A stretch of 64,000 nucleotides of DNA, from the NCBI GenBank assembly GCA_951406725.2, contig OX597820.1:126418001-126482000 (forward strand), read 5' to 3'. The DNA is from Octopus vulgaris. Lineage: Eukaryota. The first letter of the stretch is position 1, and each line of letters begins with the position of its first letter. Position numbers and translations under genes: made by a program. Positions 46,031 through 48,417 of the stretch are shown here, one piece after another. The notes beneath the pieces are model-generated. The model searched no databases and was not told the DNA's origin. It saw only the letters and a program-made list of their open reading frames with translations.

Positions 46031-47188
46031 ACAGGCTTCTTTCAGTTTCTGTCTACCAAATCCACTCACAACGCTTTGGTCGGCCCGAAGCTGTAGTAGA
46101 AGACACTTGCCAAGGGTGCCACGCAGTGGGACTGAACCCGGAACCAAGTGGCTGTGTGGTAAGTAAAGCAAGCTACTTACCACACAGCCACTGTATATAT
46201 ATATATATAGTTGCCCGAAATGGTTACTGCTGGGCTTAACACTAAGTCCTCTTAGCGGTTCGATTTGCTGGGAACTCTCGCCTCTGACTCTGCGGAATTT
46301 TCCGGGAATAATAAAAGAGACACAACTGAAAGGAATCGCACGTGCCAATTAGTGCGAAAACAAAACGAATTGTAGCGAATGCCACGTTTGTTTTGTTTCA
46401 CATTTAGTATGTGCGACACCTACAGAACAATGACATTGTTAGTTATGTTCAGTGTTTTTGAGAAAGGCATGAATATCGCACAATCCCGCCTCAAAACATT
46501 AAATAGTGTTTGTCGAAGATTTGCATTCCATTAACGCTTCTTCGAGTTTAGTACAGGAGTTGCTTCCCCTACCTTGTCGGCTTCACACCCATATGGGCAA
46601 GGGAGATAACTTGCTTAGTATATGTTCCTTGTAACCCCGAGACACCTGCTGAGGCTGTTTAAAACATTGCGGCAACTTTATTTCGATCTGAGGAAGAGTT
46701 TGCTGTATCTGCGGTGGGGCAAAGCATATCTGATGCTTTGTATAGCGGATCACAGTAGCTAATATGAATCCAACCGGGAGATGTCTTATGGTTGTAGAAT
46801 AGTATTTTGACTGCTATTTCTAAATTTCGGTGTGTGGTGAAGCATATTCTGCTGAACCCTAATTATAATTATGCTCATAATTATAGAATTTATATATTAT
46901 CATCATCATTTAACGTCCGTTTTCCATGCTAGCATGGGTTGGACGATTTTGACTGAGGGCTGGCATATATATATATATATATTGAAGTAGATAAATGAAT
47001 TGTCTTATTACGGATTATTCAAATGATAACCGATACCTGGGTAGCAAAAATCACAACAGAAAAAGCACGGTTGAGATTACGACCATGGGGCCTAAAATCC
47101 GTGCCTTAGTGCAGAAATTTGAAGTTTTATATATTTAGTGTAGGAAGAAATGGAGCTGAACGAAGATTTAACAAAATTCCTTTTTATT

Positions 47189-47274
47189 ATTTTCTACATA
47201 TGTTTCAAAGGCTGCAAAGTCCCTAATTTGGATTGAATAAGGAGTCCATTTTGCAGCCTTCTCTTCAGGAAAAT
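47189..47274 (-). ncRNA. Type I hammerhead ribozyme, apparently intact
   Basis: ATTTTC-CTGAAGA-GAAGGCTGCAAA...TTTGCAGCCTTT-GAAA-CATATG-TA-GAAAAT. Helix I is 6 bp, helix II is 12 bp, helix III is short and palindromic, and the GUA cleavage site falls at 47195/47194. Confidence 0.8.
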
Positions 47275-47405
47275 CCAGGAACTTAATTCTCCAACAAAAT
47301 GCACAGCAAGCTTGATAGACAGTTTGTACCATTTATTCCATGGGCTCCTCGTGAGCGTTTGTCGAGAAGCTTGCTGTGCATTTTGTTGGAGAATTAAGTT
47401 CCTGG

Positions 47406-47491
47406 ATTTTACTAAAGAGAAGGCTGCAAAATGGACTCTTTATTCAATCCGAATTAGGGACTTTGCAGCCTTTGAAACATATGTAGAAAAT
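47406..47491 (+). ncRNA. Inverted hammerhead copy with core mutation (CUAAAGA, G5A)
   Basis: ATTTTA-CTAAAGA-GAAGGCTGCAAA...TTTGCAGCCTTT-GAAA-CATATG-TA-GAAAAT; G5A plus loss of the helix I closing pair. Confidence 0.72.
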
Positions 47492-48417
47492 AATAAAAAG
47501 GAATTTTGTTAAATCTTCGTTCAGCTCCATTTCTTCCTACACTTATATATATATATATATATACACAACAGGTTTCTTTTCAGTTGTACACACACACATA
47601 CACAATTGACTTCTTTCAATTTCCGTCTACCAAATCCACTCACAAGGATTTGGTTGGCCTGAGGCTATAGTAGAAGACACTCGCCCAAGGTGCCACTCAG
47701 TGGGACTAACCCGGAACCATGTGGCTGGGAAGTAAGCTTCTTACCACACAGCCACGCCTGTGTTTATATATATGTATAGACGTAGCACAATAGTTGTAAG
47801 AGATGAGTAAATTTCTCTGCTGTCTTCTCCAGGCTTATTTTATGATTTAAGCTGACAGGCATGGCTGTGTGTGAGGACGAAATTCTCTTTCCAGTCACCT
47901 GCTTTCAGATTTGGCACCACATTTGCTCAAGATGCCATGCAGTGGCACTTTAAGCAAATGTCTTCTTCTAAAGTAGCATATTTAGGAGATGACTTTGGTA
48001 ATTTAATTTTCTTTCACAGGTGCACATCAGCCAATAGATTTCACTCTATTTGCATTCAAAAGTCACTTCATTTCGAGCTAATCTGAGTACATGGGGAAAT
48101 ATCGATATCTCCCATTCTTAGTCATTTGAGATGAGTGTCTTGCCTCGTCTGGGACTCTTGGTGTTCTTTAACACCCAGCATCATGTAGGGAGGTTGCCAT
48201 AGACACTATCCTGCAGCAAATGGGCATATAAACAAAACACATACATTATGTATGCGCAATTGATAATAGAGAGCAGTTTCCACATTGCATTCCAAAGCTG
48301 CCATCTCTGAAGAGCACAGGATTACATATTCGGGGTGTTACCTAACACTGTTGAACCCCTAATGCAAAACTGATTTGTAAGATCAGCCTTAATAGACATA
48401 TAATGCTGTAGACTTTG

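Follow-up and report, generated by a model that had tools for sequence, protein, structure and literature searches.

Hammerhead motifs on opposite strands in a TRDMT1 intron of Octopus vulgaris probably derive from a head-to-head insertion of Penelope-like retrotransposon ends

Results

The TRDMT1 locus

The window, by which we mean the whole 64-kb stretch of Octopus vulgaris DNA that was analysed, holds the first two coding exons of TRDMT1/DNMT2, and the third follows beyond its end (Table 1). The three exon matches are consecutive parts of human DNMT2, in order, which bears out the placement in TRDMT1 intron 1 given in a preliminary description of this DNA. The exons flank the insertion described below, which therefore sits in the 15.6-kb first coding intron and is transcribed on the plus strand. 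Elsewhere in the window, the minus strand carries a fragmented LINE-like element at 2392–7911, with an upstream ORF and endonuclease-like and reverse-transcriptase-like frames (labels assigned by eye), and a 379-codon Ser/Glu-rich open frame at 37013–38152, possibly an exon of a gene diverging from TRDMT1. Broken frames at 17950–19329 (plus), 52225–52623 (minus) and 55198–55704 (minus), again labelled by eye, are presumably transposase-like.

The insertion spans 46982–47543 and is flanked on both sides by (TA)n runs. Its main feature is an inverted repeat whose two 177-nt arms are 98% complementary, lie 53 nt apart and differ at exactly four sites (47229/47451, 47241/47439, 47266/47414, and 47269/47411). 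This agrees with the preliminary description, which had reported near-identical inverted arms with few mismatches, two of them at the catalytic junction of a ribozyme; these two involve 47411 and 47414. It had also drawn a palindromic cassette at 47133–47548. The palindrome is real, but the element reaches about 155 nt further left, to 46982, and the 53-nt spacer of the supposed unit is element sequence belonging to the plus copy. The minus and plus copies, each about 1–2% from close relatives, meet at 47312–47314, and the junction differs among pairs. In tandem source copies, the sequence equivalent to the 155-nt tail of the minus copy separates the terminal repeat from the start of the ORF. 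Among public contigs of four sequencing runs compared with 46600–48100, none spans the locus, an empty site or the 47411/47414 alleles.

Table 1. Coordinates of the features at the locus (positions in the window, except for exon 3)
Feature	Position	Strand	Basis and remarks
TRDMT1/DNMT2 first coding exon	44794–44869	+	Human DNMT2 residues 3–19, E 0.0017; donor GT at 44870
Left (TA)n run, remaining from the target microsatellite	46965–46981		Sequence
155-nt tail of the minus copy	46982–47136	-	Common to family copies; runs on into the ORF start in L037 and L116
Left arm: element 3' end (pseudo-LTR part), 5'-truncated	47137–47313	-	One private change in the arm
Putative type I hammerhead, intact core, antisense to TRDMT1	47189–47274	-	Descriptor match; helices covary across subfamilies
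Spacer, formed by plus-copy element sequence upstream of the arm	47314–47366	+	Matches family positions -52..0 when read in plus orientation
Right arm: the other 5'-truncated 3' end, tailless (short-end type)	47367–47543	+	Private changes at 47411, 47414, 47439
Hammerhead copy in TRDMT1 sense, predicted inactive	47406–47491	+	47411 C-to-A, helix I closing pair lost; G5A at 47414
Right (TA)n run, remaining from the target microsatellite	47544–47563		Sequence
TRDMT1/DNMT2 second coding exon	60434–60543	+	Human DNMT2 residues 23–56, E 6e-9
TRDMT1 exon 3, catalytic SPPCQ motif	L107:1070–1222, about 1.07 kb past the window end	+	Residues 58–106, E 1e-16

Hammerhead motifs on the two strands

The candidate ribozyme on the minus strand consists of a 6-bp helix I, CUGAAGA, a 12-bp helix II, GAAA, CAUAUG, and GUA, and so agrees with the type I definition (core CUGANGA, GAAA, NUH, and helices I–III). 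Its core lies at 47268–47262 and its GAAA at 47206–47203, with predicted cleavage after A47195; helix III amounts to 2 bp plus a palindromic loop. Across the 64-kb window, a hammerhead descriptor gave a single match, with its core at 47268 on the minus strand. With helix I of at least 6 bp and helix II of at least 10 bp, the descriptor matched none of 30 Markov-resampled windows, a weaker match occurring in three of the 30. The plus copy does not have an intact core, owing to G5A at 47414. Descriptor and arm comparison thus concur with the earlier account of a canonical minus copy (CUGAAGA) and a plus copy with G5A and a broken helix I pair. That G5A is an inactivating change finds support in the published report that it abolishes hammerhead cleavage (PMC4027429). 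Since the intron is transcribed on the plus strand, the damaged copy is the transcribed one.

A search with hammerhead models succeeded in part: the descriptor matched on the minus strand, but there was no Rfam hammerhead match, as an Rfam scan of the window returned nothing at gathering score and a scan of 46000–49500 with E up to 10 gave weak hairpin-like matches and no hammerhead family. It is thus the descriptor and the covariation of the helices that support the ribozyme call. In a folding model of the isolated motif, the predicted minimum-energy structure is not the active fold. Short CTGANGA...GAAAC matches also occur at four other places in the window (1752–1776, 8822–8843, 31014–31040, and 38599–38627; 0.89 expected). 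They are possibly minimal hammerheads of other Penelope-like families; none of the four passed a helix test.

The parent family

Genome-wide, a 22-mer taken from the arm gives 1,325 exact matches, against none for its reversed control. In longer copies an ORF precedes a 3' region several hundred bases in length, and these copies lead to an autonomous parent element of about 3.7 kb with a tandem period of about 3.68 kb. Locus L116 contains an unbroken 907-codon ORF (1714–4434, minus strand) with reverse transcriptase (RT) and C-terminal GIY-YIG-like motifs, in the layout short end, ORF, repeat plus tail, inverted copy. The Penelope-like origin proposed earlier is thereby confirmed, but the label of a non-autonomous ribozyme element has to be dropped: the family is autonomous and includes a complete ORF, and the arms are its truncated ends. 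The family is young, with over a thousand copies and an intact parent.

Like an EN+ Penelope-like element (PLE), L116 combines RT and GIY-YIG in a single ORF, and the family has a pseudo-LTR with a hammerhead, partial tandems, inverted 5'-truncated copies, and a one-sided tail. Searches with the protein were less telling. The whole L116 ORF had no match in Pfam or PDB, the Pfam GIY-YIG match on locus L009 (E 0.004) was below the cut-off, and a homologue search with the endonuclease (EN) region among longer proteins gave 136 candidates and none at E 0.001, which is weak evidence. Neighbours in the Atlas are RT and GIY-YIG clusters.

We compared the family with the Hydra clade of PLEs as described by Craig et al. 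(2021, PMC8557442; Hydra-1_Obim, Penelope-13_HM). The clade is reported to have a single ORF with RT followed by a C-terminal GIY-YIG domain, a DKT motif, no CCHH, CxxC before the conserved E, CxH after the conserved N, a sense hammerhead near the 3' end, and a (TA)n target. The translations of our family likewise have a C-terminal EN, DKT, no CCHH, and CxxC and CxH flanking E and N, and its copies show (TA)n insertion and a canonical hammerhead. Unlike the clade as reported there, the family has no CxCX5C zinc-finger linker ahead of EN: in all five frames examined, from four loci, the 200 residues preceding EN contain at most one Cys. An Asn-rich stretch stands at that position, with expanded AAT repeats in L011, L021, and L123. 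Its unit is about 3.7 kb long rather than under about 3 kb, it has RWL in place of RWK and a tail of 155 nt rather than 30–40, and helix II of its ribozyme is longer than in the Hydra-1_oBim ribozyme (PMC8557442). Because the linker is missing and the clade was judged from motifs and from RT likeness by eye, we file the family as Hydra-like rather than as a full member, although by these sequence motifs it likely belongs to the Hydra clade. Identity with Naiad/Chlamys, which have an N-terminal EN and no canonical hammerhead, was ruled out by the C-terminal EN and the hammerhead.

Titles in the octopus Penelope and hammerhead literature do not describe the family, though it may already be catalogued in Repbase or Dfam. 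It is distinct from the published Hydra-1_Obim, and five family-specific strings are absent from the PMC8557442 supplement. It is probably an undescribed but unremarkable member of a known retroelement group.

Insertions are often head-to-head

The first 100 matches listed gave 76 consecutive loci, which, with three anchor mismatches allowed, contain 113 family ends. Two fixed 3' ends account for nearly all of these: 59 are short, stopping just after the arm, and 53 are tailed, with one unclassified. The 3' end runs into TA repeats in 111 of the 113, the other two being one that continues into the ORF and one unclassified.

Head-to-head pairs were found at 31 of the 76 loci. Thirty of these pairs join a short end to a tailed end, the remaining one joins a tail to an unclassified end, and none joins two of a kind; were the ends independent, the chance of this short/tailed pairing would be about 1e-9. 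The same make-up recurs in seven of seven further hand-picked pairs and at the TRDMT1 locus. Divergence is 1.8% between partners (27 pairs) but 7.3% from locus to locus (281 draws), a difference that indicates one template per pair. Pairs range in size from tens of bases to over 5 kb, some including the ORF, and since junctions differ from pair to pair, the palindrome is made anew at each insertion. Head-to-head is the family's usual form of insertion (31 of 76 loci), and the palindrome is not a distinct cassette. Inverted 5'-truncated copies with a one-sided tail are described as typical of PLEs (PMC8557442); a literature search on inverted Penelope-like copies and twin priming returned no title on this subject.

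The sampled loci also hold two tail-to-tail neighbours and four tandems. At four single short ends (L036, L044, L059, and L090) an inverted tail-only fragment adjoins, the arrangement expected from twin priming. At L074:2740–6497, family pieces are separated by a LINE-like element with a 903-codon frame, apparently inserted into one of them.

The ribozyme across the family

Among 81 full copies, aligned without the oldest subfamily, the 12 core columns show no variant shared by at least three loci, compared with 28 such variants in helices, loop, and flanks. When the oldest subfamily is included, the core is unchanged in 95 of 101 copies, a count that misses copies with more than one change per core block. 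Across 15 haplotypes, 92% of helix cells pair, against 36–52% in slid controls, and 6 of 22 pairs show two-sided change; these rows are hand-picked and related, so that the events are few and the counts not independent. Helix III occurs as CAUAUG, CAUGUG, and CACGUG, self-complementary in every case, which is what a dimer-type ribozyme would need. On this comparative evidence we take the hammerhead to be genuine at the family level, with a conserved core and covarying helices, and the invariant core together with compensatory helix change suggests that the ribozyme of the parent copies is under selection.

The motif resembles the minimal hammerheads of PLEs described by Cervera and de la Pena (2014, PMC4209133) in being type I, with a long helix II and a dimer-suited palindromic helix III. 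It differs from that description in a loop II region of about 31 nt and in the closing pair of helix II: where G10.1-C11.1 is usual, our family has G-U or G-C, or else A-U preceded by an unpaired G.

Changes in the sense copy

The preliminary description had proposed that the sense copy was disabled to avoid cutting the host transcript. We examined this by counting exact variants of one 27-base context genome-wide, with all genomic contexts of the subfamilies matching the 27-mer pooled. There are 773 intact cores, eight copies with G5 changed (five being G5A, the TRDMT1 locus included) and five with G8 changed, so that CUAAAGA is not the family form. Two non-catalytic Gs just upstream in the same context are changed in 14 and 13 copies, numbers that may be raised by variants inherited from parents. 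Catalytic Gs are therefore changed less often than control Gs, not more (13 versus 27; one-sided P for a core excess 0.99), and core damage is not enriched. As sense-intronic copies are pooled with the rest, weak or local selection would be diluted in these counts.

Private changes tell much the same. They number 2/552 in the core and 21/3984 in the flanks of 46 unbiased full copies, and 5/972 in the core, slightly above the 26/7148 in the flanks, when all 81 copies are taken with the TRDMT1 locus included. Within pairs there are 2/254 core changes against 25/2199 in the flanks, the latter inflated by a false pairing in L043 that contributes seven. Both cores are intact in 10 of the 12 pairs with two full ribozymes, the TRDMT1 locus excluded, and an inverted partner accompanies five of the eight G5-changed copies compared with 62 of all 113 (P 0.73). 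At the TRDMT1 locus itself, the plus arm has three private changes, two of which affect the core or helix I (P 0.049, post hoc); the probability of at least one falling within the core is 0.19.

The two arms are predicted to form a hairpin of -314 kcal/mol in which the sense copy has 11 of its 12 core bases paired to the opposite arm with a probability of at least 0.89, the folding being modelled at equilibrium rather than co-transcriptionally. With the antisense arm transcribed first and the sense core predicted to be paired, there would be little for selection to act on. The 177-bp double-stranded RNA thus predicted in the TRDMT1 pre-mRNA (47137–47543, plus strand) would be a likely substrate for A-to-I editing. 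Taken together, the core changes that are not in excess (8 + 5 versus 14 + 13), the private core changes close to the flank rate, and the predicted pairing of the sense copy argue against its having been disabled for the sake of the host. The G5A change and the loss of the helix I pair are most likely random decay after insertion rather than host defence.

Discussion

Our reading, to which we assign a probability of about 0.85, is that the locus consists of head-to-head, 5'-truncated 3' ends of a Penelope-like element in a (TA)n run of TRDMT1 intron 1, likely from one insertion, and that the changes in the sense copy are likely neutral decay. In the mechanism we propose, the element endonuclease would nick both strands of the (TA)n target, and each freed 3' end would prime reverse transcription of element RNA, from a site immediately past the terminal repeat in one case and from a site 155 nt beyond that in the other. 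Both cDNAs would stop early and would then be joined at their 5' ends. Because each cDNA would pass the terminal-repeat hammerhead, the ribozyme would be present twice, on opposite strands. Its role likely belongs to the source element, where it would process tandem transcripts, probably as a dimer via the palindromic helix III. At the TRDMT1 locus the ribozyme is likely a passenger: its intact copy is off the transcribed strand, and its sense copy is predicted to base-pair with the antisense arm, which is transcribed immediately ahead of it.

Aspects of this mechanism have a biochemical parallel in PAc Poseidon of Anolis (Frangieh et al. 2024, PMC11167929), for which the purified protein is reported to cut and extend both strands of an AT-rich target from two internal RNA start sites that bound the tail. 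In our family the corresponding features are read from genomic pairs. For PAc in vitro the two strands are described as not differing in start site, whereas our genomic pairs use one site each (30/31), and from these pairs we infer one priming site per strand. The two elements belong to different clades, and the hammerhead of PAc lies over the start codon, that of our family in the 3' region (PMC11167929). A more specific version, which we put forward tentatively and at somewhat less than even odds, is that a single RT-endonuclease complex primes the two nicked (TA)n strands at two fixed sites of one RNA, one per strand, and finds (TA)n without a zinc-finger linker. The choice of (TA)n could possibly be made by annealing of the target DNA to AUAUA-like stretches at the priming sites.

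It is also conceivable that the sense ribozyme cut the TRDMT1 pre-mRNA and that selection favoured the G5A and helix I changes. In the transcribed copy both changes do affect the catalytic junction (P about 0.05, post hoc), Xenopus retrozymes are reported to be depleted from introns (10.64898/2026.07.22.740005), and a fast ribozyme in an intron can abort splicing, although slow intronic hammerhead cleavage left splicing intact (both as summarised in PMC2995048). A minimal PLE hammerhead tested as a monomer showed no cleavage (PMC4209133), and another Penelope-like ribozyme cut only with the element protein (PMC11167929). Given further that family-wide core changes are not in excess, that most other two-ribozyme pairs keep both cores, and that the sense copy is predicted to be sequestered, we consider selection by the host improbable, and prefer neutral decay of a single head-to-head insertion.

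That insertion could instead have arisen in two steps, the second arm being added later by fold-back, DNA repair or an assembly error. The partners are nearly identical, palindromes are hard to assemble, and none of the public contigs spans the locus. The plus copy, however, has 53 nt missing from the minus copy, and the minus copy has a tail missing from the plus copy, so neither was copied from the other; with arms that differ at four sites and a short-plus-tail rule kept in 30 of 31 pairs, a later second arm is highly unlikely. In favour of a self-propagating non-autonomous unit, MITE-like or retrozyme-like and moving whole, are the near-perfect terminal inverted arms with TA at both ends and the many short palindromic copies. 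Yet spacers and truncation points vary at every pair examined, pairs extend to over 5 kb and can include the ORF, the two ends are asymmetric, and tandem arrays of a short unit were not seen in the 76 loci, which leaves such a unit scarcely credible. A MITE or DNA transposon was rejected on the variable junctions and the coding parent, and a fixed short unit of the retrozyme or MITE kind on the variable junctions and lengths. Animal non-LTR retrozymes are, like our family, hammerhead-bearing and related to PLE terminal repeats, but they are described as short tandem non-coding units, whereas the pairs seen here are inverted truncation products of a coding element (10.64898/2026.07.22.740005).

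The TRDMT1 locus is accordingly an ordinary retrotransposon scar. Opposite-strand twin hammerheads in Penelope-like elements are already published: pairs 100–700 bp apart were reported in Schistosoma mansoni in 2014 (PMC4209133), and Penelope-13_HM is recorded as having a hammerhead on each strand and an inverted copy truncated at its 5' end (PMC8557442). A ribozyme knockout selected by the host would have been of note; it finds no support in the family counts. The value of the family lies in the strict rule of one short and one tailed end, in the compensatory change of a self-complementary helix III, and in a missing linker tied to (TA)n targeting. The family could be used to examine how inverted insertions form and, once annotated, whether there is selection against sense-strand intronic ribozymes. 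If priming from one site per strand is true, the insertion mechanism is recorded in the genome, and the intact L116 element would allow it to be rebuilt in vitro.
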